DNA from: Acidimicrobiia bacterium
Lineage (GTDB): Bacteria; Actinomycetota; Acidimicrobiia; Acidimicrobiales; JANYDT01
Length of the DNA stretch: 64,000 bases
Direction: 5' to 3'
NCBI GenBank assembly: GCA_031418775.1
Contig: JANOJN010000190.1
Location: forward strand, 9,216-73,215
The first letter of the stretch is position 1. The number at the start of each line of letters is the position of its first letter. This document shows, one piece after another, positions 11,571 to 45,984 of this stretch. The notes under the pieces were generated by a model. The model ran no database searches. It worked only from the letters and a program-made list of their open reading frames with translations, and was not told where the DNA came from. The position numbers and the translations under genes were made by a program.

Positions 11571-11593
11571 CGGTATGCGCGCTGATCAGATGC
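11531..11593 (+). repeat. Copy of an internal segment of the HAL-like gene (matches 13183..13245)
   Basis: 55/63 nt are identical by hand alignment, including an exact 24-mer TCGGTATGCGCGCTGATCAGATGC (11570..11593 = 13221..13244). Weaker similarity continues for about 35 nt. Confidence 0.7.
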
Positions 11594-11659
11594 GCTCGCC
11601 GGGAACGGCTGCTGCATTCGCCGTCCGCTCAGACGGCAGCACTCCGCGAACGAGCAGCA

Positions 11660-19330: not shown

Positions 19331-20401
19331 CTAGGCGGCCGCGGCAACGGTGAACGTGGTCCCGACGGCATTGGGGACGTAGGCGTCGGGGAGCGCCGTC
19401 GCGAGGCGCACCTGGGCCCGCCAGCCGGTGCAATGGGCCGGCACAACATGGCTGGGCTGCATCTCGGTAAGTGCACGTACCGTCGGCTCGATGATTGGCT
19501 CGAAAGCCGGACCGGTGAGGTGGAATCCTCCCAGGAGTCCGTGGAGACGGTCCACGCCCGTCAGTCGCATGGCATGGCGGGCGATGTTGACCGCCCCGGC
19601 GTGGCCGCAACCGGTCAGCACCACGAGGCCCTTGCCACGCACGTTCACCACCATGGCCTGGTCGTCGAGAATCAGCGGGTCCGGTGCCCACCGGCCGCGG
19701 TGGAGGGCCTCGTGAAACGGCATGCCCGTCTCGAAATCCGTGGTGCGGTCGACCTCTCCGGTGATGAGGACGCTGCCGTCGAGAAGAGCGGAGGGCTCGC
19801 GTCGTTCGATGATTTGGAAGCCCTCGCCCTCGAGCGAGCTGCGCTTGAGCACCGGGAGTTCCCATGGAGCCTGCCCAGGGAAAGCGGCGCGGCGCGGCGT
19901 CCAGACGCCGGGGTGCAGGGTGAGCGGGATGCCCGCCCGCTTGCGGAGCCGGGCAAGACCGAGGAAGCCACCGGCGTGGTCGAAGTGGCCGTGACTCAAT
20001 ACCACGGCCGCGATATCACCGACCTGCACGTCGAGACGTTCCATGTTCGCGGCCATGCCGTCGGGCGACACTCCTGTGTCGAAGAGCAACGTGTGCGTCC
20101 GTGCGCCGCGCCGCACCGTGACCAAGGCGGAGAATCCGTGCTCGGCGACCAGGCCGGGAACAGTCACACCACCCTCGAACTGTTCCGCGGGGACGCGCGG
20201 TGTGCGGCCCATAGCCGCGCGGGTCGCCGGCCCCATGTCGGTCATCAGCCCGTCATAGCTGTTGTCGACGAGCGTGACGATCCGGATCTCGTCGACGGGC
20301 TCGAGGTGAATCGGATCGACGGCCGCCCCCTCGGTCTGTTGGGGCATCGCGTGCGCGGCCTCATGGGCGTGATCGTGTCCGTCGTGGTCACCTGCGCACA
20401 T
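19331..20401 (-). CDS. MBL-fold metallo-hydrolase with a Cys/His-rich N-terminal extension
   Basis: HGHFDHAGG metal motif. ATG 20401 has GAGG 6 nt upstream. The N-terminus reads MCAGDHDGHDHAHEAAHA. ATG 20347 is an alternative start. Confidence 0.8.
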   Translation of the reverse strand: MCAGDHDGHDHAHEAAHAMPQQTEGAAVDPIHLEPVDEIRIVTLVDNSYDGLMTDMGPATRAAMGRTPRVPAEQFEGGVTVPGLVAEHGFSALVTVRRGARTHTLLFDTGVSPDGMAANMERLDVQVGDIAAVVLSHGHFDHAGGFLGLARLRKRAGIPLTLHPGVWTPRRAAFPGQAPWELPVLKRSSLEGEGFQIIERREPSALLDGSVLITGEVDRTTDFETGMPFHEALHRGRWAPDPLILDDQAMVVNVRGKGLVVLTGCGHAGAVNIARHAMRLTGVDRLHGLLGGFHLTGPAFEPIIEPTVRALTEMQPSHVVPAHCTGWRAQVRLATALPDAYVPNAVGTTFTVAAAA

Positions 20402-20513
20402 CGCGCACCTCATTCTTGGATGTTCGGGCCATGGCAGGCGGCACCGGATCGCCCCCGGACCACATTCGCACCGCAGCGTCCGCCGGATCAATCCCGCGTA
20501 CTGCGGTTTCGTT

Positions 20514-20599
20514 GGGAGAGTGTGCGCTGGGTCGCTCCTGGAGCGACCCAGCGCAACAACCTCTGCGGGTCGCCCGGCTAGCTGCGCGCCGCGGCTTCC
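20514..20599. repeat. Left copy (E1) of an ~87-nt direct repeat flanking the ABC-MFS-TCS block
   Basis: It aligns to 28205..28292 with 73 identities over 89 columns by hand, including an exact 21-mer GGTCGCTCCTGGAGCGACCCA. It contains a perfect 15-bp-arm palindrome at 20524..20554. On the minus strand it retains ..EAAARS* resembling the oxidoreductase C-terminus. Confidence 0.75.
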
Positions 20600-20602
20600 G
20601 CC

Positions 20603-23164
20603 TCAGGTGGCTATTGCGGTCAGGATGTTGATGCGGGCGGCGCGTCGAGCAGGCACGATTGCCGCGCCGATCCCGGCGATTGTCGCGATCAGAGCGATGG
20701 TGATGAGTGAACCGGTCGGGACGATGAGCCGGTCCCGTCCACCTACCGGAGCGGCGTGGACCATGGTCCACGCCAGGAACGTGCCGAGGAGGAGTCCAAG
20801 TGCGGTTCCGAACAGGGCGATGATCCCGGATTCCCCGCGGACGCTGGTGCGGACCTGGGCGCGGCTCATACCGACGGCGCGCAACAGTCCGAGCTCACGC
20901 TTGCGTTCGTGGATCGAAAGCCCGAGCGTGTTGACAATCCCGAGGATCGCGATGAACACCGCGAGGCCGAGGAGTGCGTACATGAGGGCGAGGACGGTGT
21001 CGAGCTCACCGTTCTGCTGCTCGATGAAGGCATCGGTGGTGAGCACCTTTGCGGTCGGGTATGTAGCGGCGGCGCGCTCGACGACGCTGGTGTCGTCAGC
21101 GCTGACGTAGATCCGCGAGTCGAGTCGTTCAGGGAGGTTCGCTTCGACAGCCGCAAGGCCGACGAACTGGTCCCCAACCGTGTCGGCGGCCCGGTCATAG
21201 ATGGCTCTGACGGTGAACGTGACGGTTCCCGTGGGGAAGGTGATGGCCCGGGTGTCGCCGAGGCGCACTGCGTGGGGTCCGGTTCCGCGGGTGACAGCGA
21301 TGCCGTCGGGACCGAGTCGGGTGAGGTCGCCGTCGACCTGGCCGAGGTCGAACATCGCGTTGATAGTGCCGACGTCGTAGGCGTTGAGAAACCCGGGGGT
21401 TCCATCGGTCTCGATGGCCGAAATTCTTTGCTCGGTCACGAGGTTCACGCCAGGCTGGGTGGTGAGGCCGGCAGCGACGTTGGGGGTGAGGCCGGTGCTG
21501 GCGTCGATCGCGCCGGAGTCGACGATCACGTTGCCTCGGAAGTCATCGCGAAACGCTCCTGCCCCGGAAGACTTCACCGACGCCGCAAAGATCGCCAGAA
21601 AGCTGACGAGGGCAACTCCGATCATGAGCGACGACGCCGTGCGAGCGGTCCGCTTCGGATTGCGCATCGCGTTCTGGCGTGCGATCGCACCGGCGGTGCC
21701 CCGCAGGCGAGCGATCGGCGTGCCGAGGAAAGCGGCGAGCGGACGGGCAAGGACCGGGCCCAGCACGGAGACGGCGACGAGCAGCGCGACGGCGCCGACT
21801 CCGACAGTCGTGATGTTGGCGGCGCTGCGACCGACGAGCAGGATCGCGCCAGCGGCAACTGTGGTCAGGGTGCCTCCGACGATACGTGACCCTGACACGG
21901 CAGAGCGGTCCTTCGCAACGTCGCGCAGCGCGGCGATCGGGGCAACACGTGACGCTCGCCGGGCCGGGAGAACGGCCGCAGCCAAGGTGATGACGACACC
22001 GAGGATGATGGAGCCGAGCACGGTCGCCATGGTGATCTGCAGCGTGTCGAGCGGAATGTCCACCCCGAATGCGCTGAGAAGCGCACGCAGGCCCTTGGCG
22101 ACGCCGACTCCCGCGAGCAGACCGACTGCCGACGCCAGCAGTCCCGTCACCGCGGCCTCAGCCAGGATGGCAAGTCGAACCTGGCGGCCGGTCGCCCCGA
22201 CTGCGCGTAACAGCGCCATCTCTCGGGTCCGTTGGGACACGATGATCGAGAACGTGTTGTTGATGATGAACGCACCGACGAACAAGGCGATGAGAGCGAA
22301 CATGGTGAGGAACACACCGAACTGGCTGATGTCCTTGCCGATGTCGTTCTGGTGCTCCGCGGTCAGCACAGCACCGGCGATCACTTCGGTCCCGGTACCC
22401 ACGACCGGAGCGAGTCGAGCGACAAGGGTGTCTTGGTCGACGCCATCTCGGGCGGTCACCGCGATCGCGTCGACCTGGCCGGGCTTGTTGAGCACCGCCT
22501 CGGCGGTCACATCGTCGAACAGCACCACGGACAGCCCACCTGGGGTATCGACCTCACCGAAACGCGTGATGCCGACAACGGTGGCCTCGTGTGGGTCGCC
22601 TGCTGTGAGCACGGTCGTGCGGTCGCCGACGTCGAGCTTCGCCACTTCGGCGGAATGCTTGTCGATGGCGATCTCGATGGGCTCGGTCGAGGAAGTCAAC
22701 CACCACGGCGCGAACTGCCACCACTTCGCCTTTGAGTGCAGCGGCGCGCGCCCGGAAACGATGGTGAAGGGGTTGAGTGCGGGGACTGTCACCCAATTCA
22801 TCCCGAGGACACCGGTTTGCGCGGTGCCCACTGCTTTGCCGCCATGGTCGAGGATCTGGGCGTAGCCGGAGACTTCCACGCTGGCCTGGTCAACGCCGTC
22901 GATACTGCGAACGGTGTCGAGGAGTTCAGCGTTGATCGGCCGACTGCTCTCTCCGTAGCCACGCTCGAGCGGGCTGGCCGCCCGGATGTATGCGTCCGTA
23001 CCTTTGTCCGCTTTCGCGAGCAGGGAGTCGAAGGTGCCACGGATGGTGTCAGTGAGGATGAGGGTCCCCGAGAGGAACGCGACCCCGAGGATGACCGCGA
23101 ACGACGTGGCGAGGAGCCGCATCTTGTTGGCGGCGAGCTGCTTGACGGTGAGCTTGGCAATCAT
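20603..23164 (-). CDS. MacB/FtsX-type ABC transporter permease (double FtsX domain)
   Basis: 853-aa ORF with two FtsX-type modules. Each has a large extracytoplasmic loop and an ER(T/K)RE(M/L)..LRAVG motif (QRTREMALLRAVG; ERKRELGLLRAVG). Confidence 0.9.
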   Translation of the reverse strand: MIAKLTVKQLAANKMRLLATSFAVILGVAFLSGTLILTDTIRGTFDSLLAKADKGTDAYIRAASPLERGYGESSRPINAELLDTVRSIDGVDQASVEVSGYAQILDHGGKAVGTAQTGVLGMNWVTVPALNPFTIVSGRAPLHSKAKWWQFAPWWLTSSTEPIEIAIDKHSAEVAKLDVGDRTTVLTAGDPHEATVVGITRFGEVDTPGGLSVVLFDDVTAEAVLNKPGQVDAIAVTARDGVDQDTLVARLAPVVGTGTEVIAGAVLTAEHQNDIGKDISQFGVFLTMFALIALFVGAFIINNTFSIIVSQRTREMALLRAVGATGRQVRLAILAEAAVTGLLASAVGLLAGVGVAKGLRALLSAFGVDIPLDTLQITMATVLGSIILGVVITLAAAVLPARRASRVAPIAALRDVAKDRSAVSGSRIVGGTLTTVAAGAILLVGRSAANITTVGVGAVALLVAVSVLGPVLARPLAAFLGTPIARLRGTAGAIARQNAMRNPKRTARTASSLMIGVALVSFLAIFAASVKSSGAGAFRDDFRGNVIVDSGAIDASTGLTPNVAAGLTTQPGVNLVTEQRISAIETDGTPGFLNAYDVGTINAMFDLGQVDGDLTRLGPDGIAVTRGTGPHAVRLGDTRAITFPTGTVTFTVRAIYDRAADTVGDQFVGLAAVEANLPERLDSRIYVSADDTSVVERAAATYPTAKVLTTDAFIEQQNGELDTVLALMYALLGLAVFIAILGIVNTLGLSIHERKRELGLLRAVGMSRAQVRTSVRGESGIIALFGTALGLLLGTFLAWTMVHAAPVGGRDRLIVPTGSLITIALIATIAGIGAAIVPARRAARINILTAIAT

Positions 23165-23182
23165 GGTGGTGTCGTCTTTCGA

Positions 23183-24496
23183 TCAGGTGGGTTGGATGAG
23201 CGCGGGCGCCGAGTCGGGCCGTGCGTCGACGGTGGTGGGAGACGCTGCGCTCGAACCAGCTCGGTCGGTGCGCAGGGAGGTGAGGCGAGGGCCTTGGATA
23301 GCCGCCGCACAGATCAAGGCGGTGAGACCACCGAGGGCGAACGGCACCCGAGCCGAGGTGGCCTGGATGATCCATCCGATGAGCAGGGCGCCGAGTGGTG
23401 TGGTCCCGAACAGGGCCATCTGGTGCAGGGCCATGACCCGTCCTTGCATCGCCGGTTCGGTGGCCTGTTGGAGCACAACTGTGGTCACCGACTGGAACGA
23501 CGCTGAGGCGAAACCGAGGACGACGCTCATGGCGACGAACGGCCAGAAACCAGGAGCGACGGACAGCGCGAGACACGACACGGCGAAGCCTGCCAGCGAA
23601 AGCGCCAGTGTCCGACGCGGGTGCGGCTTGACCCCGGCGATGTAGATGCCACCCACGATCGAGCCGATCGCGCTGACACTCATCGCGATGCCCACCGATC
23701 CCGCACCCCGGTGGAACCCGAAGCGCACCATCGACGGGAACGTGGTGGGAAAGTTGTAGGCGACGGTGCCCACGACGCTCATGACGAGCAACGGTCGAGC
23801 GACATCGCGGTGGGTGCGTACGTACTCGAAGCCTTCGCGGAGCTTTCCCTTCGCGCTCCCGATGGCCGGCCGATGCACGAGTTCAGATGAGCGCAGCGCG
23901 AGCAACGCCCCGATGACGACGACGTACGACGCGGCGTTCACGATGAAACAGGCTTCGACACCGACGGTCGCGATCAGTGCTCCGGCAAGTGCGGGACCGA
24001 TGAGGCGTGAAACCGAGGCAATCGTGCTGTTGGTCGCGACCGCACTGGGGAGCAGTTGCGGTCCCACGAGTTCGTACAGAATCGCTTGCATCGCCGGTCG
24101 TTCGACTGCCAAGGCGATGCCGAACACGAGGGTCAGGGTGTAGATCCACCAGATCGTGATGTGGTCCGACAGAGCGACGGCGGCGAACGTCGCGGCGAGC
24201 AGACCGGACACCGCTGACGTGACGACGAGGATGCGACGGTTGTCGAACCTGTCGACCAGCACGCCGGCGGGGGCGCCGAGAAGCAGCAGGGGAAGGAACT
24301 GCAAGGCCATCGTGACGCCGAGCCGGTCGCTGCGGTTCGTCAACTCCAACACGAGCCAGGTGACGGCGAGGGCATGCGTCCACGACCCGATGCTCGAAAT
24401 CGTCTGGCCGACGAAGTACATCCGGAAGTTCCGGTTGCCGAAGGCCGCCAAACGACGGCCCGAGTCCGTCGTCTTCATCTCGTGTGGCGTCGCCAT
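23183..24496 (-). CDS. MFS transporter (EntS/Mef-like efflux type)
   Basis: 437-aa ORF with about 12 predicted TM segments. N-terminal NRNFRMYFVGQTISSIGSW and LVDRFDNRRIL are typical of this MFS subfamily. It sits between the ABC ATPase and the permease. Confidence 0.85.
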   Translation of the reverse strand: MATPHEMKTTDSGRRLAAFGNRNFRMYFVGQTISSIGSWTHALAVTWLVLELTNRSDRLGVTMALQFLPLLLLGAPAGVLVDRFDNRRILVVTSAVSGLLAATFAAVALSDHITIWWIYTLTLVFGIALAVERPAMQAILYELVGPQLLPSAVATNSTIASVSRLIGPALAGALIATVGVEACFIVNAASYVVVIGALLALRSSELVHRPAIGSAKGKLREGFEYVRTHRDVARPLLVMSVVGTVAYNFPTTFPSMVRFGFHRGAGSVGIAMSVSAIGSIVGGIYIAGVKPHPRRTLALSLAGFAVSCLALSVAPGFWPFVAMSVVLGFASASFQSVTTVVLQQATEPAMQGRVMALHQMALFGTTPLGALLIGWIIQATSARVPFALGGLTALICAAAIQGPRLTSLRTDRAGSSAASPTTVDARPDSAPALIQPT

Positions 24497-24502
24497 GATG
24501 GC

Positions 24503-25276
24503 TCAGCTCCCGGCCTGCTTGAAGAAGTCGAGGACGATGGCGGCGGTCGGATCGACGAGATCGCCAACGATCCGGCCGTCGGCCAGGAACACGGCCCGAT
24601 CGGCGTAGGCAGCGGCGGTCGGGTCGTGGGTGACCATCACCACGGTCTGGTCGAGCTCGCGAACGGCGTTGCGCAGGAACGTGAGGATCTCGGCTCCGGC
24701 GTGGGAATCGAGGTTGCCGGTGGGCTCGTCGGCGAAGATGATCTCGGGTCGCGAGGCCAGGGCGCGAGCGACGGCGACGCGCTGTTGTTGCCCTCCGGAC
24801 AACTCCGACGGACGGTGCGTCAACCGGGTGCGCAACCCGACCGTGTCGATGATGTGGTCGAGCCAGGCCGGGTCGGGTTTGCGTCCGGCGAGTGACATCG
24901 GAAGGGTCATGTTCTCCAATGCGTTCAATGTGGGGATCAGGTTGAACGACTGGAAGACGAAGCCGATCCGGTCACGACGAAGCCGAGTGAGCTCGGCGTC
25001 GTGCAGCGTTGCGAGGTCGATGTCCCCGATGCGAATCGAACCCGAAGTCACGGTGTCGAGCCCGGCGAGGCAGTGCAGGAGGGTCGACTTCCCTGATCCG
25101 GATGGTCCCATCAGGGCCGTGAACCGGCCGGCGTCGAAGCCGACCGTGACACCGTCGAGGGCGTTGACGACGGCGTCATGGGCGCCGTAGATCTTCGTCA
25201 CATCGACAGCGCGGGCGACGATGCGACGTTGTCCGGGGGGAGAAACGGGTGGGGTAAGGGTTGTTGTAGTGGTCAT
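24503..25276 (-). CDS. ABC transporter ATP-binding protein
   Basis: ATG at 25276. Walker A is GPSGSGKST, the signature is LSGGQQQRVAVARAL and Walker B is IIFADEPTGNLD. Confidence 0.9.
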   Translation of the reverse strand: MTTTTTLTPPVSPPGQRRIVARAVDVTKIYGAHDAVVNALDGVTVGFDAGRFTALMGPSGSGKSTLLHCLAGLDTVTSGSIRIGDIDLATLHDAELTRLRRDRIGFVFQSFNLIPTLNALENMTLPMSLAGRKPDPAWLDHIIDTVGLRTRLTHRPSELSGGQQQRVAVARALASRPEIIFADEPTGNLDSHAGAEILTFLRNAVRELDQTVVMVTHDPTAAAYADRAVFLADGRIVGDLVDPTAAIVLDFFKQAGS

Positions 25277-25406
25277 GCCAACCACGATGCGCCCCGGAGT
25301 CGGGCTGGCACATCGGGCCTGGGGCGTTCGCTCGAGCCGACAGATTGAACTCTGTGCGCCCACTCTCGCCCGGCAGGCGCATGACGTTCTCATCCTGTAG
25401 ACCGAT

Positions 25407-27506
25407 GTGCCTCTTGCCGGCAGGGTCTACGGTCAATCGATGAGGTTCGATCGCATCGTTCGTCGCGATCTGCGCGCTCACGCCTGGGACTACGCGCTCG
25501 CCGGTTCGATGGTCGCCGTCGCTCTGGTCGCTCTCGTCACGCGGATTGATGTCCAAGACGCCGATGCCCATCTCTTCGGGCCCGACAACTGGGTTGGTTG
25601 GGTCGTGACAATCGCCGTGTGCGTAACGCTCGTCGGGCGGCGACGCTGGCCGCTACGGGCGCTCGCATCAGCTCTCATCCTGATACTCCCGATCGAGTTC
25701 TCCCACCAGCGCGACACCGTGGCGTTTTTCGCCGTTCTGATCGCCCTCTACAGCGTCGCTGCATACCTGCCACTGCGACTGGCCGTGCGAGGCCTTGCGC
25801 AGATGGCGGCCTTCTACGTTGTCCTCGTTGCCACCGGCACCATCCTGCTGACGGCGGTTCCCCTGCTCGGGTTGTCGCTCCTGACCGTGGCGTTCGCATC
25901 CGGTCTTGCCGTCCACCGCAAACGAGCGAGCGACCACCGCGCCTCAGAGATCGCCATCGAACGAGCAGCAGCGGCGATCGAGACCGCCGAAGTGGTGGCC
26001 GCCGACGAACGCCTTCGCATGGCCCAGGAGCTCCACGACGTGGTCGCGCACTCGCTGAGTGTCATCGCCGTGCAAGCGGGGATCGGTGCGCACCTCATCG
26101 ACCGTCGACCGACCGAGGCGGCCCGGTCGCTCGATGCAATCCGATGCACTTGTGACAGCACCGGGGTCGAACTCGACCGATTGGTTGGAATCCTGCGAAC
26201 CGGCACAGTCTCGGACTCGACGACGGCTCCGTCCGTTGCGACGATCGCAACACTCGTCGATCAGAGCCGCAGCACCGATCTCGCCGTCACCCTGAACATC
26301 GATGGCGAACTGGCAACCGTCCCCGCCGGGGTATCGCTTGCCGCGTACCGAATCGTGCAAGAGGCACTCACCAACATCGTTCGCCATGCCGGAAGTCCGG
26401 TCGCCGCGACGGTGACCATCAAGGCGACGGACGACCACATCGGTCTGACCGTAGATGACAACGGTCGTGGCGTCACGGTCCACGAGGCCGCCACCCACGG
26501 CGGGGGGAACGGACTCGTAGGAATGCGAGAACGAGCTCACATGTACGGCGGCGACGTCCACGCGGGACCGAGGCCCGGTGGTGGGTTTCGGGTGAGAGCC
26601 ACACTCGACACCCGGACCGGAATCAGCCCCATACAACCGACCTATCAAGCGACGGCTCTCCCGGTCGACCTCGAGCCGAACCCCGATCGTCGACGACTCT
26701 CCCCGCCGACCTGGGACGCAGCACTGGCGATACTGATGGCGGCGATAGCAATCCTCGAAGTGATCGCGTCCCATCCGACACCCGGCGGACCGGACTTCAT
26801 GCCGAACGATGTCTGGGCGTTGTCGCTCCGTCTCGGATGCGCCGCGACGCTCGCGTTCCGGCGAAGATACCCGACGGTTTCGTACGCCTTTGCCTGGGTT
26901 CTCGGTCTTGTGTTGATCATCGGCGACTACCAGTTCGGGGTCCTCACGTTGGTGCTGCTGATCGGGCTGTATTCGGTTACTGCCCATGCCACGCCTCCGC
27001 GAGTCATCAGTGCGGCGGTAGGGACAGTTGCCGGAATCACGATCGTTGCCCTGTCGAAACCGCCCGACCTGAGCGCCAGTGGAGCGGTCTGGGCGAGCGT
27101 GTTCTTCGCCGGGTCGGCCGTCACCGGGCATGTCATGCGACGCGACCGGAGTCGACGAGCCACCGAACTGAACGAACGGCAGATCGACGCCGCAGCACGC
27201 ACCCGACACTCGCATCTCGTCCTGACGAACGAGCGGCTCCGCATCGCTGACGAACTTCGCACCGTCCTCACCCGGTCCATAGACACGATCGCTCGCCACG
27301 CCGAAACCGGCTCGCGTCTTGTCGACAGCGACATCGACGTAACTGGCGATGCCCTTCGCGCCATCTCGACGATCAGTCGCGATGCGCTCAATGACCTCCG
27401 ACGGTTGCTCACGCACCTCCGCAACCCGACGGAGGGGTCGAACTATTCACCGATCTCGTCCACGCTCGAGACGGTCGGCGGCAACACCGCTGGCGTTCCG
27501 CGATGA
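25407..27506 (+). CDS. NarL-partner (HisKA_3) sensor histidine kinase with a duplicated His-less C-terminal sensor/DHp module
   Basis: 699 aa. Module 1 has a TM sensor, the H-box AQELHDVVAHS (His210, 26034..26036) and an HATPase (EALTNIVRHAG, DDNGRGV, GNGLVGMRERA). Module 2 (residues ~430-699) repeats the TM sensor (FRRRYP, GLYSVTAH) and the DHp helix ERLRIADELRTVLTRS, but has no His and no ATPase. ATG 25440 is an alternative start. Confidence 0.85.
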   Translation: MPLAGRVYGQSMRFDRIVRRDLRAHAWDYALAGSMVAVALVALVTRIDVQDADAHLFGPDNWVGWVVTIAVCVTLVGRRRWPLRALASALILILPIEFSHQRDTVAFFAVLIALYSVAAYLPLRLAVRGLAQMAAFYVVLVATGTILLTAVPLLGLSLLTVAFASGLAVHRKRASDHRASEIAIERAAAAIETAEVVAADERLRMAQELHDVVAHSLSVIAVQAGIGAHLIDRRPTEAARSLDAIRCTCDSTGVELDRLVGILRTGTVSDSTTAPSVATIATLVDQSRSTDLAVTLNIDGELATVPAGVSLAAYRIVQEALTNIVRHAGSPVAATVTIKATDDHIGLTVDDNGRGVTVHEAATHGGGNGLVGMRERAHMYGGDVHAGPRPGGGFRVRATLDTRTGISPIQPTYQATALPVDLEPNPDRRRLSPPTWDAALAILMAAIAILEVIASHPTPGGPDFMPNDVWALSLRLGCAATLAFRRRYPTVSYAFAWVLGLVLIIGDYQFGVLTLVLLIGLYSVTAHATPPRVISAAVGTVAGITIVALSKPPDLSASGAVWASVFFAGSAVTGHVMRRDRSRRATELNERQIDAAARTRHSHLVLTNERLRIADELRTVLTRSIDTIARHAETGSRLVDSDIDVTGDALRAISTISRDALNDLRRLLTHLRNPTEGSNYSPISSTLETVGGNTAGVPR

Positions 27507-28174
27507 CTCCGTCGATCCGAGTGCTCGTCGCTGACGATCAAGCGCTCGTACGACGCGGGTTCCTCGCGCTGCTCCGGGCCGAGGACGGCATCGAGGTCGT
27601 CGGCGAAGCGGCCAACGGCTACGAAGCGGTCAAGCTGGCCAAACGCGAGCGGCCGGACGTGATCCTGATGGACATCCGCATGCCCGAGATGGACGGACTC
27701 GAAGCCACGCGAGTGATCACGGCGGACCCAACGCTGAATGCGGTACGCATCCTCATCCTGACCACCTTCGACCTCGACGCCTACGTCCACGAAGCACTTC
27801 GGGCCGGTGCCTCCGGCTTCCTGCTCAAGGACACACTCCCGCCCGAACTGCTTGCAGCAGTTCGGGTCGTCGCCGCCGGAGAAGCGCTCCTGGCCCCCAG
27901 CATCACCCGCCGGTTGATCGAAGACTTCGTTCGACGACCAATGGCGACGGCTAACGACTCACGACTCGGACAGCTGACCGCGCGCGAACGCGAAGTGCTC
28001 GCAGCCGTCGCCAGAGGACTCTCCAACGCCGAACTTGCCGACGAACTCTTCATGAGCCATGCAACGGCCAAGACTCATGTCAGCCACCTGCTCACCAAGT
28101 TCAGCGCCCGCGACCGGGCCCAACTGGTCGTCGCCGCCTACGAAACCGGTCTGGTCTCGCCCGGGCAAACCTGA
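27503..28174 (+). CDS. NarL/LuxR-family response regulator
   Basis: The start overlaps the kinase stop (ATGA). The receiver domain has VLVADDQ and DVILMDIRMPEMDG. The C-terminal LuxR HTH reads LTAREREVLAAVARGLSNAELADELFMSHATAKTHVSHLL. Confidence 0.9.
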   Translation: MTPSIRVLVADDQALVRRGFLALLRAEDGIEVVGEAANGYEAVKLAKRERPDVILMDIRMPEMDGLEATRVITADPTLNAVRILILTTFDLDAYVHEALRAGASGFLLKDTLPPELLAAVRVVAAGEALLAPSITRRLIEDFVRRPMATANDSRLGQLTAREREVLAAVARGLSNAELADELFMSHATAKTHVSHLLTKFSARDRAQLVVAAYETGLVSPGQT

Positions 28175-28204
28175 CGACACACTGTCACCAACTTGTCCGA
28201 GCGA

Positions 28205-28292
28205 GGGAAGAGTGTGCGTTCGGTCGCTCCTGGAGCGACCCAGGCACCAATCTCGGCGCGGGTTTCGGGGCTAGCCGCGCGCCGCCGCTTCC
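28205..28292. repeat. Right copy (E2) of the direct repeat; includes the 3' end and terminator-like hairpin of the oxidoreductase gene
   Basis: See E1. The hairpin GGTCGCTCC-t-GGAGCGACC is at 28222..28240. Positions 28271..28292 encode the last residues (WEAAARG*) of the Gfo/Idh/MocA gene. Confidence 0.75.
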
Positions 28293-29254
28293 CATTCGGT
28301 GAGGAAGCGCATGAGCTGAAACGAATCGTCGAGGCGCGGGCTCGGACGCTCGGCCTCCAGTCGGCCGGCGGCGATGTTGGCCTCGACCATGCGCACCTGA
28401 TGATCGAACGCATCAAGCGGATCCGTCACGACGATGGTCTGCGCGTCGCCGTCGAAGGGCCGCCAAATGAACGAGTTGTCGCCACGTCCGGGGAGCCAAG
28501 GATTGGTGAGAAATGTGAGGGTTCCGTCGGTTCCCTGCACTTCGAACCGCGAGGTGTTGCCGTACGTCTCGGCGGTGTGGATCGTGGCGAGAATTCCGCC
28601 GTCGAAACGAACGGTTGCCGCCGTCTCGCACATGCTTCCGTCAGCCTCTGACACCGTGCCCAGCGCCGTGAGCTCACACCGAGCGAAGGCTCCATCACCG
28701 CCGATCGCATCCATCACCAGTTGCACGAGCGACGCCGGGTAGCACCCGAGGTTGTAGATCGCGCCCCGCCCTTCGGGATTGACGAGATGGGCGATGTTTG
28801 CGGCGTAGCTCGCATGGACTGCCTTCAGTGTGCCGAGGCGCCCGTCGCGGAGCACGTCGACGAAGCGGGCGATCACCGGGTGCGCGAGGTACATCAGACC
28901 CTCGACGAAGAACACGGAGTCCCGCACGGACGCAAGCAATGCGTTCGCCTGCTCCATCGACACCGTGAGCGACTTCTCCGAGAGGACGGCCTTGCCCGCG
29001 GCAGCGGCGAGGATCGTCGCCTCGTGGTGGACGTGGTTCGGCGTCCCGACATAAACGACGTCGACGTCAGGAGCGGCGAGAGCTTCTTCGAGACTCCTCG
29101 CGGCACGGGCAATGCCATGTCGAACGCGGAATGCTTCGAGACGCTTCGGGTCCCGTCCGACTACGAGCGTGGCGATGGAGCCGGGGCTTGCCTCGATCGC
29201 CTTCGCCATCGTGTCGGAGATGAAACTGGTCCCGAGGATTGCCCACCGCAGCAC
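28271..29254 (-). CDS. Gfo/Idh/MocA-family oxidoreductase
   Basis: GTG at 29254 has AAGGA upstream. The N-terminal Rossmann segment LRWAILGTSFIS and the VLSEKSL motif are present. It is about 327 aa within ORF 28271..29749. Confidence 0.8.
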   Translation of the reverse strand: MLRWAILGTSFISDTMAKAIEASPGSIATLVVGRDPKRLEAFRVRHGIARAARSLEEALAAPDVDVVYVGTPNHVHHEATILAAAAGKAVLSEKSLTVSMEQANALLASVRDSVFFVEGLMYLAHPVIARFVDVLRDGRLGTLKAVHASYAANIAHLVNPEGRGAIYNLGCYPASLVQLVMDAIGGDGAFARCELTALGTVSEADGSMCETAATVRFDGGILATIHTAETYGNTSRFEVQGTDGTLTFLTNPWLPGRGDNSFIWRPFDGDAQTIVVTDPLDAFDHQVRMVEANIAAGRLEAERPSPRLDDSFQLMRFLTEWEAAARG

Positions 29255-30043: not shown

Positions 30044-30370
30044 TCAGTGGCGGGCCAGCGCGTCCAAGATGTTGAGCTTGGCGGCGCGTCCGGCGGGTCG
30101 GATAGAAGCGACGATCTCGGCGACAACGGCGAGCACCACGACCACGATCAGCGTGGTGACCGGAATGGTGAAGGACCTCAGACCTTCGTCGCGCAACGAG
30201 ATGATCACGGCATAGCCGAGAAGGATGCCGATCACGATGCCCTGGGCGGTGCCGAGCAACGCGGTGATGACCGACTCTCAGCGCACGGAGGACCGGACCT
30301 GCGACCGGAGCGCCCCAACGGCTCGAAGAAGACCGAGCTCGCGGGTTCGTTCGTAGACCGAGAGGCTCAT
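30044..30370 (-). pseudogene. 3'-terminal remnant of a second FtsX-type ABC permease with an in-frame stop
   Basis: The minus strand reads MSLSVYERTRELGLLRAVGALRSQVRSSVR*ESVITALLGTAQG...AKLNILDALARH. TGA at 30278..30280 sits where Trp or Gly is expected. The upstream ~700 codons of the gene are absent. Confidence 0.7.
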
Positions 30371-30460
30371 GTTGAAACGTCACCGATCGTCTTCGGGTCA
30401 ACGAGGGACAGGGCGCTGGCTTTCGTCCTGTCCTCGACGTTCCCGTACCCGAGCTGGAGG

Positions 30461-31264
30461 CTGCTGGCACTCCCGACCTCGGGTAGCGCGTTCAGCTTTG
30501 CTCTTGTCACGCTGAACCGACCTGACCTGCTCAACGCTATCGACGGCACCCTGCTCGACGACCTGGATGCCGCTCTCGATGAGATCGAGGCGTCGGGAGA
30601 GGTCCGGGCAGTGATCATCACAGGGGCCGGTCGGGCGTTCTGTGCGGGCGCGGATCTGAGCGGTACGGGGACGGCGTGGACGAAACCGTCACGTACCCCA
30701 CTCAAGACGTCATACGACGGTCAGGTGCGGCTCGCTGACCAGATGACGCGCCTCTACGAGCTCTCGGTCCCGGTCATCGCTGCCGTCAACGGAGCAGCGG
30801 TCGGGGGTGGCCTGGCGTACGCCCTGCATTGTGATGTACGCATATCTTCCGAGTCGGCTCGGTTCGGATCGGCCTTCATCACTGCTGGCTTCTCGTCGCT
30901 CGACATGGGCACGAGTTACCTGCTGCCGAAGATCGTCGGTGCCGGACGGGCGCGCGAGATGATGCTCAGCGGTCGGATCATCGATGCGACCGAGGCCTAC
31001 CGGATCGGCCTCGTGCAGGAGGTCGTGCCCCAGCCGAACCTTCTCGACGCCGCCCTCGCTGTCGCGAGACGGATCGCCGCCAACAACGAGTTCGGCGTGT
31101 GGCAGACCAAGCTCGGGCTCAACGTCGCCCTCGACGCGCCGAGCCTTCGCCATGCCAAGGAGATCGAGAACCGCACCCAAATCCTCGCCGTGCAGACGGG
31201 CAACCCGAAAGAGGCCGGGCTGGCGCGACGGGAACGGCGCGCTCCCGACTTCGACCGGATGTAG
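30461..31264 (+). CDS. Enoyl-CoA hydratase/isomerase (crotonase) family; 5' end unresolved, possibly truncated
   Basis: LVTLNRPDLLNAI, AVIITGAGRAFCAGADL and PVIAAVNGAAVGGG are crotonase hallmarks. There is no in-frame ATG/GTG/TTG between the FtsX remnant and the LNRP segment. 30461 is only a CTG codon placeholder. Confidence 0.6.
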   Translation: MLALPTSGSAFSFALVTLNRPDLLNAIDGTLLDDLDAALDEIEASGEVRAVIITGAGRAFCAGADLSGTGTAWTKPSRTPLKTSYDGQVRLADQMTRLYELSVPVIAAVNGAAVGGGLAYALHCDVRISSESARFGSAFITAGFSSLDMGTSYLLPKIVGAGRAREMMLSGRIIDATEAYRIGLVQEVVPQPNLLDAALAVARRIAANNEFGVWQTKLGLNVALDAPSLRHAKEIENRTQILAVQTGNPKEAGLARRERRAPDFDRM

Positions 31265-31600: not shown

Positions 31601-33400
31601 CTACTCCGCTTCCGCTCCCCGTGGGTCGCTCGACTGCCTGGTCGCAATGGTCGCCGGGACGCCAGAGGCTCCAGACACGCGGACGTGCAGTTCGTACGAC
31701 GTGTCTGCGCCGGGCCGCAGATCGATCGTCGGCTCGATCTCGAGAACGAATTCGTCGGACTCCAGCCAGGCGGACATCCGCTCGATCCATGTCCGTGCGA
31801 TCGGCTCGGTGGCGCGGCGGCGACGCTCCCGTTCGTCCGCCGCGAGGGGGCCGGCGATGGCGGCCGGTCCAGTCACGACTGGACGGTTGTTCTTCTGACT
31901 AGCGACGACGACCCGGTTCTTGCCCAACTCCTTGGCTTCGTACATCGCGAGATCAGCGTCGAAGAGCATGGCCTCCGCGGAGGCGGCCGCGTTGAACAGG
32001 GCGAGACCGACGCTGGCAGTCACGTGCAACACCTCTGAACCTTCGCCCGCGGTTACTGCGCCGATCGTTGCGATCACGGCATCGGCGACGGCGAGGGCCT
32101 GGTCGAGTGCGGAGTTCGGGATGATGACGGCAAACTCGTCGCCACCGAACCGGGCCACGATGTCGGTGTCTCGGAGGCGGGTCCTCAGGGCGGACGCGAC
32201 GTTACGGAGGAGCGCGTCGCCCTCGGTGTGCCCCAACGTGTCGTTCACCCGTTTGAAGCCGTCGAGATCCAGCATGAGCAGCGCCCCACCGTGCCCGTAG
32301 CGTTCAGCGAGTGCGACGTGGCGCGCGAACTCCCGCCCAAAGCCCCGGCGGTTCAGGAGTCCGGTCAGCGGGTCATGGTTCGCCTGGAAGTGGAGCTGTG
32401 ACTCAAGCCGCTCGCGATCGGTCACGTCGAGCACATGGACCAGGACGAATTCCGGTTGATCATGAGCGTCGCGGATGAGGCTCTGGCGAAGCTCGACCCA
32501 ACGCTCCTCCTCGTCGATGCCGTTGCTTCGTCGCCGCGTCTGGGCGGGGGCCGCTGCACCTGCGAACACCGACTTGAGTGTCTCCCTCAGATCCTCGGCG
32601 TCGTCGGGATGGACGATGTCGACCAGTGGCCGGTGCCGAGTCTGCTCGGACCCGAAGATTCCGACGTACGCGTCATTGGCCATGACGACAACCCCATTGC
32701 GGTCGACGAGCGCGGTGCCGATCGGAGCCGATTCGAACATCGATTGGAAACGGTTCTCTGTGGAGATCAGGGCATCCTCCACCTTGTGAAGCCGCTCGAC
32801 CGATCGAACGAGCGCGAGCCCGATGGCCGCGCCGACCATGAGAAGAACGATGCCGTGACCGACGTCGGCGGTGCCGTACTTCGTCTCATCGAGCAACAGG
32901 ACCGGAACATCGAACACCGCACCGATCCCGATGAGCACGGTCGCCATCTGGGCTCGGTTCCCGCGGACGGCGACGGAGATCACCGAAAGCAGGACGGTTG
33001 CCGAAAGCAACGTGTTCGACGCGTGGACGCTGTGTCGGAGGAGAGCGATCGCACAGAGATGGGCCAACGCAGGAAGCACCTCGCACCACTGCGGAAGGCG
33101 CTGCCACTGCACGCGCCGGGCGGCAACGACGGTGACAGTGATCAACGCGGCGGCAAGAACTGCGGTGTGGTGATCGAACGATCCGCGGCTGAGCACGACG
33201 ATGAGGACGGGGAGGTAGACGACCCCCAGCACGAACGCGGCCAGGGTGGTCCGCGTAAGCGCCGGTCCGTTCGCCACGGACGACGCGGCTTTGCGGAGAC
33301 GAGGAAAGCGTCGCGAGGCCGAGCGCAGTGACGACTGACGAGGGTGGCGGATGGACATCTTGCAGCCGTTCGGTCGGTGGGGGTCGACTGACTTCTTCAT
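31601..33400 (-). CDS. Membrane-bound PAS-GGDEF diguanylate cyclase with a truncated EAL-like tail
   Basis: ATG at 33400 has GGAAGG upstream. The protein has a multi-TM N-terminus and a PAS segment. RFGGDEFAVII is present, with an RDTD I-site five residues upstream. The last ~55 aa (WLESDEFVLEIEPTIDLRPG..SYELHVRV) resemble only the start of an EAL domain. Confidence 0.85.
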   Translation of the reverse strand: MKKSVDPHRPNGCKMSIRHPRQSSLRSASRRFPRLRKAASSVANGPALTRTTLAAFVLGVVYLPVLIVVLSRGSFDHHTAVLAAALITVTVVAARRVQWQRLPQWCEVLPALAHLCAIALLRHSVHASNTLLSATVLLSVISVAVRGNRAQMATVLIGIGAVFDVPVLLLDETKYGTADVGHGIVLLMVGAAIGLALVRSVERLHKVEDALISTENRFQSMFESAPIGTALVDRNGVVVMANDAYVGIFGSEQTRHRPLVDIVHPDDAEDLRETLKSVFAGAAAPAQTRRRSNGIDEEERWVELRQSLIRDAHDQPEFVLVHVLDVTDRERLESQLHFQANHDPLTGLLNRRGFGREFARHVALAERYGHGGALLMLDLDGFKRVNDTLGHTEGDALLRNVASALRTRLRDTDIVARFGGDEFAVIIPNSALDQALAVADAVIATIGAVTAGEGSEVLHVTASVGLALFNAAASAEAMLFDADLAMYEAKELGKNRVVVASQKNNRPVVTGPAAIAGPLAADERERRRRATEPIARTWIERMSAWLESDEFVLEIEPTIDLRPGADTSYELHVRVSGASGVPATIATRQSSDPRGAEAE

Positions 33401-33437
33401 CGGCCTTCCGCTGGGCAACTTGAGCTAGCGAGCAACC

Positions 33438-34331
33438 GTGTCACCGCGGGTGTTCCTCCCGCCACCCAGACGCGCGAAGCTCTCTTCAGGGTGGTCGTTC
33501 CTTTCGTATCGGGGTGGGGACGACCGTTCGGGAACCAGCGGCGGTGCCGGAGACGTCGGACGTCAGGTGAAACGAGCTCGGGAAACCACCCCTTCCTCCG
33601 GCACCCGTCGGGGGAAGGCCCGAACTCGGCTGCACGGCACCCTGCTGTTGATGGTCGCTGCCGTGCCGGGCTTCGTCGTCATCGTGTCGGCATGGCCGAC
33701 GTGGGCCACACCGCCGCCCGGTCCAACGATCGCCATCCGACCGTCACCCGAGGATGATCGTCCCTCCATCAACCTGTTCGAGACCGACGAGTTCAACACC
33801 GCAAAGCTCTGTGCCGAGGGCATCGTCATCACCAAAGACCACCGGTCGCGAAGCTGCAGGCTCGGGCGCTCGCGCCAACTTGACGTCTCGACCACGTTCG
33901 GCGGTGTCACGCCCACCCTGTTTGCGACGCGTTCGAGTTACGACTCCGACGGCGGCTACGGCCTGCGCGAAGAGGTGCTGATCCTCGACGAGAAGGGCCG
34001 TGCGCTCCACAGCCTTGTCCAATGGCGCCACGACGTGTTCGACCAGCACAGCGCCACGCTCCGGCGACGGTTCCGGTTCGTGAACATCGATCGTCGCGAG
34101 GACGACGAGATATGTGTCCAGACCACGACAGCGGCTGGACCCGGGCGGTTCGACGATTCACCGGTCTTCCGGCCGTCCGAGCGGTGGACGGGGTACGACG
34201 CGTTCACCTGGGGCAACGGCAGATTCGTCCGGGCGGAATCCCTTGACGGCGGTTGCCCGACGCGCGGGTATCAACTCTTCGTGCCGATGCCCCTGACCGA
34301 TGACCCCGTCCATCGCAGCCGTGACCGCTGA
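33438..34331 (+). CDS. Hypothetical membrane-anchored or secreted protein
   Basis: 297-aa ORF with a basic N-terminus and then the TM/signal segment LLLMVAAVPGFVVIVSAW. I recognise no motif, and the start is uncertain. Confidence 0.45.
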   Translation: MSPRVFLPPPRRAKLSSGWSFLSYRGGDDRSGTSGGAGDVGRQVKRARETTPSSGTRRGKARTRLHGTLLLMVAAVPGFVVIVSAWPTWATPPPGPTIAIRPSPEDDRPSINLFETDEFNTAKLCAEGIVITKDHRSRSCRLGRSRQLDVSTTFGGVTPTLFATRSSYDSDGGYGLREEVLILDEKGRALHSLVQWRHDVFDQHSATLRRRFRFVNIDRREDDEICVQTTTAAGPGRFDDSPVFRPSERWTGYDAFTWGNGRFVRAESLDGGCPTRGYQLFVPMPLTDDPVHRSRDR

Positions 34332-34390
34332 CGCGCGCAGCCGAGACACTCGGTTCGGGTTGGTCGTCGACCCCGCATACGCTCGTAACG

Positions 34391-35596: not shown

Positions 35597-35620
35597 GATG
35601 CGCAGTCTCGTGTAAGGGTC

Positions 35621-35733
35621 TCGCCGATCTCCACTCCGCCGCCGGTAGTCCGGCCGATCCCCGCTCCGCCGCCGGTAATCCGACCGATCCCCGCTCCGCT
35701 GCCGGTGGTCTGGCCGTTCTCCACTCCGCGACC
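35621..35733. repeat. 30-bp imperfect tandem repeat, about 3.8 copies, in a divergent promoter region
   Basis: Units lie at 35621, 35651, 35681 and 35711 (partial). The consensus is CGGCCGATCCCCGCTCCGCCGCCGGTAATC, with 83-87% identity between neighbouring units. The array fills 113 of the 150 nt between the starts at 35596 (-) and 35747 (+). Confidence 0.85.
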
Positions 35734-35746
35734 TAGGTTTAGGCCC

Positions 35747-41234: not shown

Positions 41235-41429
41235 AGTGTGTCCCGAGGGTGAGAGACCGTTGCCGGTCGGATGAAACGAAACGGACGACGGAAGCATCTC
41301 CGGCGTTCCAAACAGCCGGGAAAGGCTAGCAGCACCGACCCGTCACGCCGAACCTCGGGGCGCAACCTTGTTGACCAGCCCCACCGGTAGGCTCGTCGGC
41401 CCACGAGTAACCCAGGACGTACCTTTCCG

Positions 41430-41486
41430 ATGGACCGTTCCACGATCCGCAATATCTCTCTGCTCAATCGCGGCGGTAGCCGGTGA
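41430..41486 (+). promoter_or_regulatory. 18-codon upstream ORF created by a duplicated lepA 5' end; its stop overlaps the lepA ATG
   Basis: 41429..41458 and 41485..41514 are identical at 29/30 nt. The uORF encodes [18 protein letters not shown], and LepA starts [17 protein letters not shown] 41484..41486 overlaps ATG 41486 (TGATG). Confidence 0.4.
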
Positions 41487-43756: not shown

Positions 43757-43828
43757 GGCTTACGACCCGCTGACAATCGTTCGCCTTTGCCGGCGGTCGA
43801 GCGACTCCCGACGGGTCGCTTGCGGCAA

Positions 43829-43894
43829 AACGCCTCCCAGCGTCGTTGGGAGGCGTTCTGCCCCCAGATATGGGGGCAACCTCTCTCCCAACGA
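43829..43894. repeat. Structured intergenic repeat, copy A (hairpin plus conserved 35-nt tail)
   Basis: The hairpin AACGCCTCCCA-gcgtcgt-TGGGAGGCGTT is at 43829..43857. The tail GCCCCCAGATATGGGGGCAACCTCTCTCCCAACGA is at 43860..43894. On the minus strand the hairpin is followed by TTTT, so it could terminate the SPFH gene. Confidence 0.7.
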
Positions 43895-45812: not shown

Positions 45813-45886
45813 CTCCCCTGCCTGTCCGGCGCCAGCGTTACTCGCTCGGCTCGTCTGCTGGCAACACGGCTGACGCGAGCGCGCTG

Positions 45887-45984
45887 GGGAGAGAGGTTGC
45901 CCCAACATCTAGGGGCTATTCACCTCCCAGCGACGTTGGGAGGTGAATAGCCCCCATATATGGGGGCAACCTCTCTCCCAACGA
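45887..45984. repeat. Structured intergenic repeat, copy B, with an extra inverted left arm (MITE/REP-like)
   Basis: 45919..45984 aligns to copy A at 56/66 nt. The inner hairpin has 18-bp arms at 45912..45929 and 45937..45954. An outer 17-nt inverted repeat GGGAGAGAGGTTGCCCC (45887..45903) pairs with 45963..45979. Confidence 0.7.

Follow-up and report, generated by a model that had tools for sequence, protein, structure and literature searches.

The window, a 64,000-nt stretch of an Acidimicrobiia genome (referred to below as W), contains a five-gene transport and signalling block set between a Gfo/Idh/MocA oxidoreductase gene and the gene of an MBL-fold hydrolase. The block is bounded by two related repeats, E1 and E2. 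We call the E2 side of the block the left junction and the permease/E1 side the right junction. The features on which the argument depends are the following:

19331 to 20401, minus strand: MBL-fold hydrolase, 356 aa, the downstream neighbour; 100% identical to P0001
20514 to 20599, minus strand: E1, the distal repeat copy, also present in the independent contigs L152 and L136
20523 to 20555: near-perfect 33-nt palindrome (16-nt arms) in E1, seen in the sequence as a hairpin between the permease and MBL genes
20592 to 20598, minus strand: 7-nt microhomology GAAGCCG, joining the module end (permease TGA + GGCG) to the ghost of the oxidoreductase tail
20603 to 23164, minus strand: FtsX/MacB-type ABC permease, 853 aa, the module's last gene (Pfam FtsX)
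23183 to 24496, minus strand: MFS_3 transporter, 437 aa (Pfam)
24503 to 25276, minus strand: ABC ATPase (Pfam), 257 aa as called in identical contigs; the open reading frame runs on to 25393
25440 to 27506, plus strand: histidine kinase, 688 aa, with a duplicated sensor/DHp arrangement (DUF7134-HisKA_3-HATPase_c-DUF7134-HisKA_3)
27503 to 28174, plus strand: LuxR/NarL-type response regulator, 223 aa, the module's first gene on the E2 side (Pfam)
28175 to 28204: 30-nt filler between module and E2, conserved in W, L001, L002 and L003
28205 to 28292, minus strand: E2, the proximal repeat copy, where the oxidoreductase and response-regulator genes converge
28271 to 29254, minus strand: Gfo/Idh/MocA oxidoreductase, 327 aa (Pfam, homologues)

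All five block genes have Pfam assignments (FtsX, MFS_3, ABC_tran, HisKA_3/HATPase_c and Response_reg/GerE). Homologues of the permease, 77–85% identical, lie within the same five-gene module in other contexts, and the double histidine-kinase architecture is kept in L153–L155. The first-pass annotation had described the block as an insertion devoid of mobility genes, and this description holds: a scan of 40 open reading frames from across the window, with every block gene and both flanks among them, found no integrase or transposase, and the insert ends, which are the stop codons of the response regulator and the permease, share no terminal inverted repeats. A foreign composition signature did not materialize, as neither GC content nor GC3 shows a discontinuity between block and flanks.

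E1 and E2 are genuine direct repeats, identical at 71 of 85 positions (84%) from GGAAGC to CACACTCT, with 82% column identity when wider 131-nt windows are aligned by MAFFT. They share an exact core, as had been noted, and its length needs correction from 21 nt to 22: the longest exact match is the 22-mer GGTCGCTCCTGGAGCGACCCAG. Local BLAST of one flank against the other recovers a 35-nt core (E=6e-11) and a 24-nt coding tail (E=2e-4), and the 19-nt hairpin core is found at two sites in 64 kb, E1 and E2 only, against 0.14 expected (none of 100 shuffles reached two). E2 carries the true 3′ end of the oxidoreductase gene (..WEAAARG*, stop at 28271–28273), then a spacer and an imperfect palindrome (core 28222–28240), and is read through by fourteen independent contigs. 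Right at the permease stop, E1 keeps the predicted ghost of the same coding end: approximately the last 7 codons and a stop (20578–20580), reading ..EAAARS* and beginning within the permease stop codon, followed by spacer, palindrome and ..CACACTCTCCC. The repeat was correctly described as target sequence, the oxidoreductase tail plus its hairpin. E1 is no assembly artefact, since contigs L152, L136 and L147, all independent and from other samples, carry the permease-E1-MBL sequence in identical arrangement; among the relatives compared, it occurs in the window's own species only. Nor is it a simple in-situ copy of the resident E2, because the outer-arm segment has diverged in E1 (11 of 17 columns match E2, six differ) and is invariant among four E2 orthologues (16/16 identical).

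The predicted empty site is real. In L004 the oxidoreductase gene is next to the MBL gene, with one copy of the repeat; the single 84-nt copy (L004 10963–11046) aligns to both 28292–28209 and 20599–20514 of the window. E1, leader and MBL gene are collinear with L004 at 86.9% identity over 1.9 kb, and this collinearity with the empty-site allele includes the MBL leader (~110 nt, 20402–20513). Relative to L004 the block is an insertion, as had been proposed. We leave the gain/loss polarity unset because L004 is no clean outgroup. More distant MBL homologues (85% and 79% identity) were considered as evidence of polarity and set aside, their contexts being unrelated and unable to polarize the event. 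Identities between genomes are uneven: the 3′ half of the histidine-kinase gene is 99.8% identical between W and L001, adjacent genes 91–93%, and the MBL gene of L002, which has the block, is 95% identical to that of the empty L004 but 89% to that of W. These strains recombine heavily.

One reading of the empty site reverses the order, making the block ancestral at this locus throughout the clade and the L004 arrangement a secondary, precise deletion in which E1 and E2 recombined. Only the polarity is at issue here, any origin of E1 would be compatible with it, and the reading seems to us a serious possibility, though doubtful. L004 nests within the block-bearing genomes: its MBL gene is 95% identical to that of the occupied L002 versus 89% to that of W, and its ECH gene is no farther from W than are the ECH genes of other genomes. 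Such nesting is nevertheless weak evidence where gene-by-gene relationships are mosaic. Moreover, the 22-nt longest exact stretch is a poor RecA substrate, and L002, the genome closest to L004 at the MBL gene, has no E1 with which to recombine.

Comparison with other genomes separates the history of the module from that of the repeats. In L153, L154 and L155, homology to the module (76–81% at the nucleotide level) has its two limits exactly at the stops of the response regulator (28175) and the permease (20603), and the neighbouring genes are different in each; those in L155 encode TrbL, an AAA_10 ATPase, Toprim and a TraG/T4SS coupling protein, with DUF4389 after the permease. These alignments show the block to be a portable module that travels between Acidimicrobiia genomes. 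Neither a hairpin nor flanking repeats were found at the module junctions of L153, L154, L155 and L002 (four junction pairs), and sequence resembling the repeat is absent from 22 kb of the L155 element and from the vicinity of the module in L153 and L154. W, L001, L002 and L003 have homologous left junctions, and because this E2-side junction is the same in all four, we attribute it to one ancestral insertion. The 30-nt filler, which finds no homology in L153–L155, marks this shared ancestral junction. The right junctions differ. In L002 the permease is followed by DUF4389 (75% identical to that of L155), ~250 nt, and the MBL gene from about position -25, with neither E1 nor the native MBL leader. 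This right end is a single observation, as the contigs of L001 and L003 stop before the right junction. A candidate degenerate E1 after the L002 permease was rejected, there being no flank-to-flank similarity and GAAGCCG being native to the module in L154. A nearby PAS-GGDEF indel has no flanking repeats; therefore long repeats are no general feature of indels here.

These observations bear on the earlier proposal that the insertion itself duplicated 87 nt of target, and they do not support it: the left junction is shared, L002 has DUF4389 and ~250 nt in place of E1, the three other contexts show no repeats, and the left edge of E1 coincides with a microhomology. On that proposal, staggered breaks 87 nt apart would have been filled in, or a template switch would have occurred, and L002 would have lost its copy later. 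One copy at the empty site and two around the insert is the formal signature of such an event, and duplications of 71–244 bp by IS1549 of Mycobacterium smegmatis provide a precedent for the length. We nonetheless consider a true long target-site duplication highly improbable, given a block with no transposase and no terminal inverted repeats, copies that are just 84% identical, four other junction pairs in which the module lies without duplications, and a genome, L002, that shares the left junction yet has the ancestral permease-DUF4389 linkage and no repeat.

The right joint of W is where its two apparent parents meet. BLAST breakpoints overlap at 20592–20599, the match to L002 ending at 20592 and that to L004 starting at 20599, and the 7-nt GAAGCCG in this interval is native to both partners. 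Downstream of the permease, L002 reads TGACGCGAAGCCGACC and L154 reads TGAGCCGAAGTCGCG; the oxidoreductase tails of L004 and L002 read TGGGAAGCCGCG.

We propose that the repeats were most likely left behind by ordinary recombination, as a scar, rather than by a new mobile element. The specific account that we favour, at somewhat better than an even chance, invokes two events reconstructed from the alignments: insertion of the module, then joining of E1 and the MBL leader to it by illegitimate or homology-facilitated recombination. The block would be a laterally transferred cargo module, comprising in full a response regulator, a double histidine kinase, an ABC ATPase, an MFS transporter, an FtsX permease and a DUF4389 protein, which in an ancestor would have landed directly 3′ of the palindromic, terminator-like hairpin behind the oxidoreductase gene. 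The chromosomal target, made up of the oxidoreductase gene's last 24 nt, the spacer and the hairpin, would then be present twice, as the two repeats, with E2 the resident copy. In the second event E1 and the native MBL leader would have been attached to the distal end of the module, the joint forming through GAAGCCG just past the permease stop and inside the oxidoreductase tail, with removal of DUF4389. The most economical route would have a related strain supply an unoccupied allele (oxidoreductase, hairpin, MBL gene), which would recombine with the occupied one through two crossovers, a homologous one within the MBL gene or close to it and an illegitimate one at the microhomology. Such a combination is the pattern of homology-facilitated illegitimate recombination (HFIR). 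We infer the order of the two events and the source of the E1 copy. On the homologous anchor side, gene-by-gene comparison of the relatives gave no recombination breakpoint or donor allele, and sliding-window identity between W and L002 shows no breakpoint close to the permease end. As to function, it is possible that E1 restores a terminator and native leader ahead of the MBL gene, and the repeats could permit rare RecA-mediated loss of the block.

The microhomology does not separate HFIR from the trimming of a longer duplication, because the same joint would result if a larger element later lost internal sequence. The block could also be what remains of a decayed integrative element. A larger element, for instance a conjugative one of the L155 type, might have integrated at the oxidoreductase tail and hairpin, either site-specifically or, by way of a copy of the segment that it had captured, through a single crossover of the Campbell type, leaving the duplicated segment as attL and attR. 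Independent deletions would have followed, that in W running from just past the permease stop to the attR edge and that in L002 from a point past DUF4389 across attR and the MBL leader. We judge this history to be rather unlikely. A gene 3′ end and an inverted-repeat core with an exact 22-mer have the classic look of an att site, the module is cargo of a conjugative element in L155, and the joint fits an internal deletion equally well. The outcome would also agree with the definition of CIMEs, elements that have lost their integration and transfer genes yet retain attL and attR (PMC6323972). Against this, three events are called for (one integration and two independent deletions) versus two in the account that we favour; the 22 kb of the L155 element and the surroundings of the module in L153 and L154 contain nothing like the repeat; the window's scanned reading frames include no integrase; and the outer arm of E1 differs strongly from its counterpart in E2, a segment that does not vary among four genomes.

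The palindrome itself deserves separate consideration. A 101-nt segment containing it in E1 is predicted to fold very stably (-57.4 kcal/mol, z -4.3), and Rfam has no family for it or for the window's other palindromes, generic long-hairpin matches falling far under gathering scores. Two other long nested palindromes lie at 43819–43894 and 45880–45984 and share the 12-mer CTCTCCCAACGA with E1; this 12-mer has three matches versus 0.49 expected, a number attained by 2 of 100 shuffles. Breakpoints gather at both edges of the palindrome: those of the module insertion, of an AhpC insertion and a deletion in L151 (the latter with the microhomology CGAGA at its joint), and of the junction in contig L134. 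This last contig provides a third left-hand context, sharing the palindrome alone and not the rest of the unit; its gene X, represented by a 27-aa peptide padded with X residues, gave no protein sharing words when searched. An apparent inverted E1 spacer in L151 was rejected, as this sequence is orthologous to what lies downstream of the second FtsX gene.

The third context in L134, the clustering of junctions at the palindrome edges and the 12-mer shared with the nested palindromes would all suit a dispersed REP- or MITE-like family, whose presence at both block ends would be incidental or the result of REP-mediated rearrangement. We regard this as very unlikely. The repeat unit reaches 45 nt past the palindrome, into the oxidoreductase coding tail and spacer, an extension for which dispersal of an element cannot account. 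A profile search returned no third copy in the window or the other compared loci, and a pattern scan of 80 relatives' loci placed the hairpin motif solely downstream of the oxidoreductase. Chance accounts for the 43 metagenome-contig matches to the motif, which come without E1/E2 homology or any flanking gene, and a viral-contig match reached merely E=0.6 against the E profile. Finally, the 12-mer is not conserved in L004.

Still, a pure chance-scar model leaves the clustering unexplained, and the clustering gives a hint that breakage may be promoted or directed by the hairpin itself. More speculatively, a recombinase whose gene lies elsewhere might act in trans on the ~50-nt palindrome as its recombination site. 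The spot would then be a cassette-like exchange point lacking its own integrase, somewhat in the manner of Xer-exploiting elements or attC sites; we think this quite unlikely. Under the same improbable reading, cargoes (a module of five to six genes, the AhpC gene and gene X) would have been swapped at nucleotide-precise positions at either palindrome edge. Independent breakpoints clustering at the edges of one palindrome are the one aspect of this locus from which something new might come.

If the two-event account is right, the locus shows, for an uncultured population of Acidimicrobiia, how an efflux/sensing module borne by conjugation turns into a chromosomal islet, and how later recombination between occupied and empty alleles can yield att-like direct repeats with no integrase involved. 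It also carries a caution for island-finding methods, since direct repeats at a gene 3′ end are not proof of site-specific integration.

Among known systems, transposons and insertion sequences differ from the block in having a transposase and terminal inverted repeats, whereas its five tightly packed genes are all concerned with transport or signalling; a duplication at every insertion is likewise missing from four other junction pairs. Integron cassette arrays combine an integrase and attI with single-ORF attC cassettes, and here there is no integrase and the insert is a five-gene module on two strands. With REP/BIME and MITE-like repeats the locus has in common a GC-rich, near-perfect palindrome in an intergenic, terminator-like position and rearrangement junctions at its edges; in contrast, two copies were found in the DNA compared, and the repeated unit is not the palindrome, since it includes unique coding sequence outside it. 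The actinomycete integrative elements pSAM2 and SLP1 have long att identity segments that overlap gene 3′ ends; elements of this type target tRNA genes and encode their own integrase. They resemble the present case in phylum, in having a repeat of the same length class (tens to ~100 nt) and in its position at a gene 3′ end, and differ in that neither a tRNA-gene target nor an integrase of its own is seen here.

ICE remnants flanked by att sites are known, as in Streptococcus thermophilus, where one such site is the fda 3′ end. As in CIMEs, the cargo here has no integrase or transfer genes and is bounded at both ends by direct repeats (71/85 positions, 22-mer core) that combine a gene 3′ end with an inverted-repeat core. 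In contrast to CIMEs, whose att sequence accompanies the element everywhere, these repeats are absent where the module occurs in other genomes (L153, L154, L155, L002). No cognate integrase or ICE using the site was found among the window's reading frames or in 22 kb of the L155 element, and the copies are 84% identical, the distal one starting at a microhomology joint and not at a defined att boundary.

A further parallel is HFIR, known from Acinetobacter baylyi, Streptococcus pneumoniae and Pseudomonas stutzeri, with joints of 3–10 bp (PMC6382021). Here too, one side, from E1 on through the MBL gene, follows a homologous allele, that of L004, collinearly, and the other is a novel joint whose 7-nt microhomology, GAAGCCG, lies within that range and occurs in both parental sequences. 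The present case differs from those described in being deduced from comparative sequence alone, in an uncultured Acidimicrobiia lineage; in that the imported DNA would be an allele of the recipient's own neighbourhood; and in its by-product, which would be a direct repeat around a resident island in place of the gain of a foreign gene.

The transporter and sensor genes between E1, the distal repeat copy (20514-20599), and E2, the proximal copy (28205-28292), form a portable, mobile cargo module that is inserted at a real, polymorphic site. The block comprises the following genes:

20603-23164, minus strand: FtsX permease, 853 aa
23183-24496, minus strand: MFS_3 transporter
24503-25276, minus strand: ABC ATPase
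25440-27506, plus strand: unusual histidine kinase, 688 aa
27503-28174, plus strand: LuxR-type response regulator

The domain architecture of the histidine kinase is duplicated (DUF7134-HisKA_3-HATPase_c, then DUF7134-HisKA_3 without a second ATPase domain), and this layout is kept in all module copies, at 645-701 aa in L153-L155.

The direct repeats noted in the first-pass annotation are real, with matches at 71/85 positions and an exact 22-mer in common. On the oxidoreductase strand, E2 (28292..28205) reads GGAAGCGGCGGCGCGCGGCTAG, a spacer and CTGGGTCGCTCCAGGAGCGACC..GCACACTCTTCC, and contains the true stop of the Gfo/Idh/MocA oxidoreductase gene (327 aa); E1 (20599..20514) reads GGAAGCCGCGGCGCGCAGCTAG, a spacer and CTGGGTCGCTCCAGGAGCGACCCAGCGCACACTCTCCC, and starts inside the stop codon (TGA) of the permease. 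A 19-nt core has two sites only in 64 kb, E1 and E2, against 0.14 expected, and flank-versus-flank local BLAST recovers the core at E=6e-11 and the coding tail at E=2e-4. E1 is also present in three independent assemblies (L152, L136, L147) and E2 in fourteen contigs. Of eight metagenome contigs carrying the window's MBL-fold hydrolase, seven terminate within E1. Less likely origins of the repeats are a genuine target-site duplication of 87 nt and dispersal of a REP-like element: the repeat has 45 nt of unique sequence beyond the palindrome, and no further copies were found in the window or in the relatives' loci searched.

With the oxidoreductase as query, Acidimicrobiia MAGs were recovered at 81-91% identity, the gene lying on the plus strand in these loci. 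The block follows the oxidoreductase in L001, L002 and L003. The empty site that had been predicted exists in L004, where the MBL gene comes directly after the oxidoreductase with one copy of the repeated segment: L004 10963-11046 aligns with window 28292..28209 and also with 20599..20514. For the MBL gene, identity is 95% for occupied L002 against empty L004 and 89% to the window. Within the block, window 26300-27503 (the 3′ half of the histidine-kinase gene) is 99.8% identical to L001 and adjacent genes are 91-93% identical (response-regulator gene 93.5%, oxidoreductase 91%); judged from these identities, the stretch appears to be a recent recombination tract within the module, and the population is strongly recombining.

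Permease homologues with 77-85% identity also occur in L153, L154 and L155. In these three additional contexts nucleotide homology to the module (76-81%) begins and ends precisely at the response-regulator and permease stops, and the neighbouring genes change from one context to the next. An RHH/PemK toxin-antitoxin pair lies upstream in L154. In L155 TrbL, AAA_10 ATPase and Toprim genes border the module at one end and NYN and TraG/T4SS coupling-protein genes at the other, which places it within a conjugative element. A DUF4389 gene follows the permease in both L155 and L002 (75% nucleotide identity). The palindrome was not found in L153, L154 or L155, and is therefore part of the chromosomal target rather than of the module. 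Since direct repeats flank the module in none of these contexts, nor in L002, long flanking repeats are no regular product of its insertion.

The left junction, about 30 nt from ..CACACTCTCC to the response-regulator stop, is homologous in the window, L001, L002 and L003, and we therefore attribute these copies to one common insertion event. The right junction is not the same in all genomes. L002 has DUF4389 and then about 250 nt after the permease, homology to the window resuming only about 25 nt before the MBL start, and both E1 and the native MBL leader of about 90 nt are missing. In the window, GGCG and GAAGCCG come after the permease stop, then the remaining oxidoreductase tail, the spacer, the palindrome and the native MBL leader, and from the oxidoreductase tail to the leader the arrangement is collinear with L004. 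The 7-mer GAAGCCG is native both downstream of the permease (TGACGCGAAGCCGACC in L002, TGAGCCGAAGTCGCG in L154) and in the oxidoreductase tail (TGGGAAGCCGCG in L004 and L002), and the alignment of the window to L002 ends at 20592 and that to L004 begins at 20599. We infer from this that the left edge of E1 is a microhomology joint, which explains the ghost of a coding end directly after the permease stop.

Compared segment by segment, E1 resembles another allele of the target more than it does a recent copy made in situ. A 17-column outer-arm segment is identical (16/16) across E2 of the window, L001, L002 and L003, and E1 matches only 11/17 columns; the stem-loop part of E1 matches L003 E2 at 38/38 positions and the window's own E2 at 35/38. 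Its tail and first spacer match E2 copies at 27-28/33 and L004 at 27/33 ungapped; by eye, one insertion and one deletion would make them noticeably closer to L004, which is suggestive only.

The E1 palindrome is near-perfect over 33 nt (101-nt fold, -57.4 kcal/mol, z -4.3); that of E2 is imperfect (z -1.5) and the L004 version degenerate (z 0.1). The hairpin has no U-tract, a simple terminator scan made no call and an Rfam search gave no family match; its place after the oxidoreductase and, for E2, between convergent genes suggests a putative factor-independent terminator. In L134 (1-140; ERZ28573559 scaffold_69052) the palindrome and MBL gene have a different left flank: 95 nt of unmatched sequence, joined about 12 nt left of the palindrome, with an ORF ending ..FEKMHPAP*, a peptide not found in the window, the relatives' loci compared or the protein database. 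This flank may be a strain variant, a third palindrome copy or a chimeric scaffold. L151 has lost the oxidoreductase by a deletion whose CGAGA microhomology joint lies at the palindrome's left edge, and an AhpC/TSA-like gene on the opposite strand (1-900) is inserted immediately right of it, within 1-2 nt of the module's insertion position at the right edge. The same gene follows the oxidoreductase in L005 (5453-6349), where the palindrome and MBL gene are missing. The L134, L151 and module junctions make both palindrome edges recurrent breakpoints. These may reflect palindrome-stimulated breakage or survivorship, few positions being available between terminator and promoter; a trans-acting site-specific system has a low probability. 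These otherwise unexplained features, with the contig ends inside E1, leave some room for a true recombination site at the palindrome, an improbable reading but a considerably more interesting one.

Several other features of the window were recorded. Remnants of a second ABC ATPase/FtsX permease pair lie at 30044-30498 (minus strand), in the interval that separates enoyl-CoA hydratase from the oxidoreductase. L001 (1427-4468), L002, L003 and L005 have both genes of the pair intact, and in the window deletions of about 2.6 kb and 0.44 kb left pseudogene fragments that a 405-aa ECH ORF call overruns. Within 31601-34354, which has no flanking repeats, a PAS-GGDEF gene (31601-33418) is missing from L004 and L002, and the next ORF (33438-34331) is also extra relative to L002. 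A nested multi-hairpin element is present at 43819-43894 and again at 45880-45984, on either side of a divergent Band_7/SPFH gene and an ORF without annotation; the two copies are 83% identical, and their first stems differ by compensatory changes. The copy at 45880-45984 is a near-perfect hairpin of about 105 nt (z about -10), its 17-nt inverted ends reading GGGAGAGAGGTTGCCCC, and both share the 12-mer CTCTCCCAACGA with E1; Rfam has no matching family, and the element may be MITE- or REP-like. In the pair 11531-11619 and 13183-13271, 89 nt near acyl-CoA dehydrogenase genes are 78% identical to the 5′ part of an aromatic amino-acid lyase gene and may be a fragment of it. A 30-nt repeat occurs four times in tandem at 35618-35737, within the N-terminal extension that precedes the first Pfam domain of a Rieske oxygenase ORF, and a 30-nt direct repeat (41429-41458 and 41485-41514; 97% identical, 56-nt spacing) straddles the lepA start.

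We propose two events. A six-gene module would first have inserted immediately 3′ of the hairpin, about 90 nt of target being lost, a state kept in L002. The lineage of the window would then have recombined with an unoccupied allele, by one homologous crossover within the MBL gene or close to it and one illegitimate crossover at GAAGCCG, so that a second copy of the oxidoreductase tail, hairpin and MBL leader took the place of DUF4389 and the old junction. The repeats are best read as a secondary recombination scar. The earlier interpretation is partly supported: a block inserted at a real site and repeats derived from the target hold, and the repeats as footprint of the insertion mechanism are not supported. 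The main rival is a decayed, att-flanked, CIME-like element (defined in PMC6323972), in which a larger element would have integrated, duplicating the segment, and two independent deletions would have trimmed it. This model accounts equally well for the microhomology, but it requires one extra event, the module's other contexts give it no support, and no integrase is present among the ORFs scanned across the window. The proposed exchange with an unoccupied allele follows the scheme of homology-facilitated illegitimate recombination, in which joints use 3-10 bp (PMC6382021), and we regard the case as one more example of processes already known.
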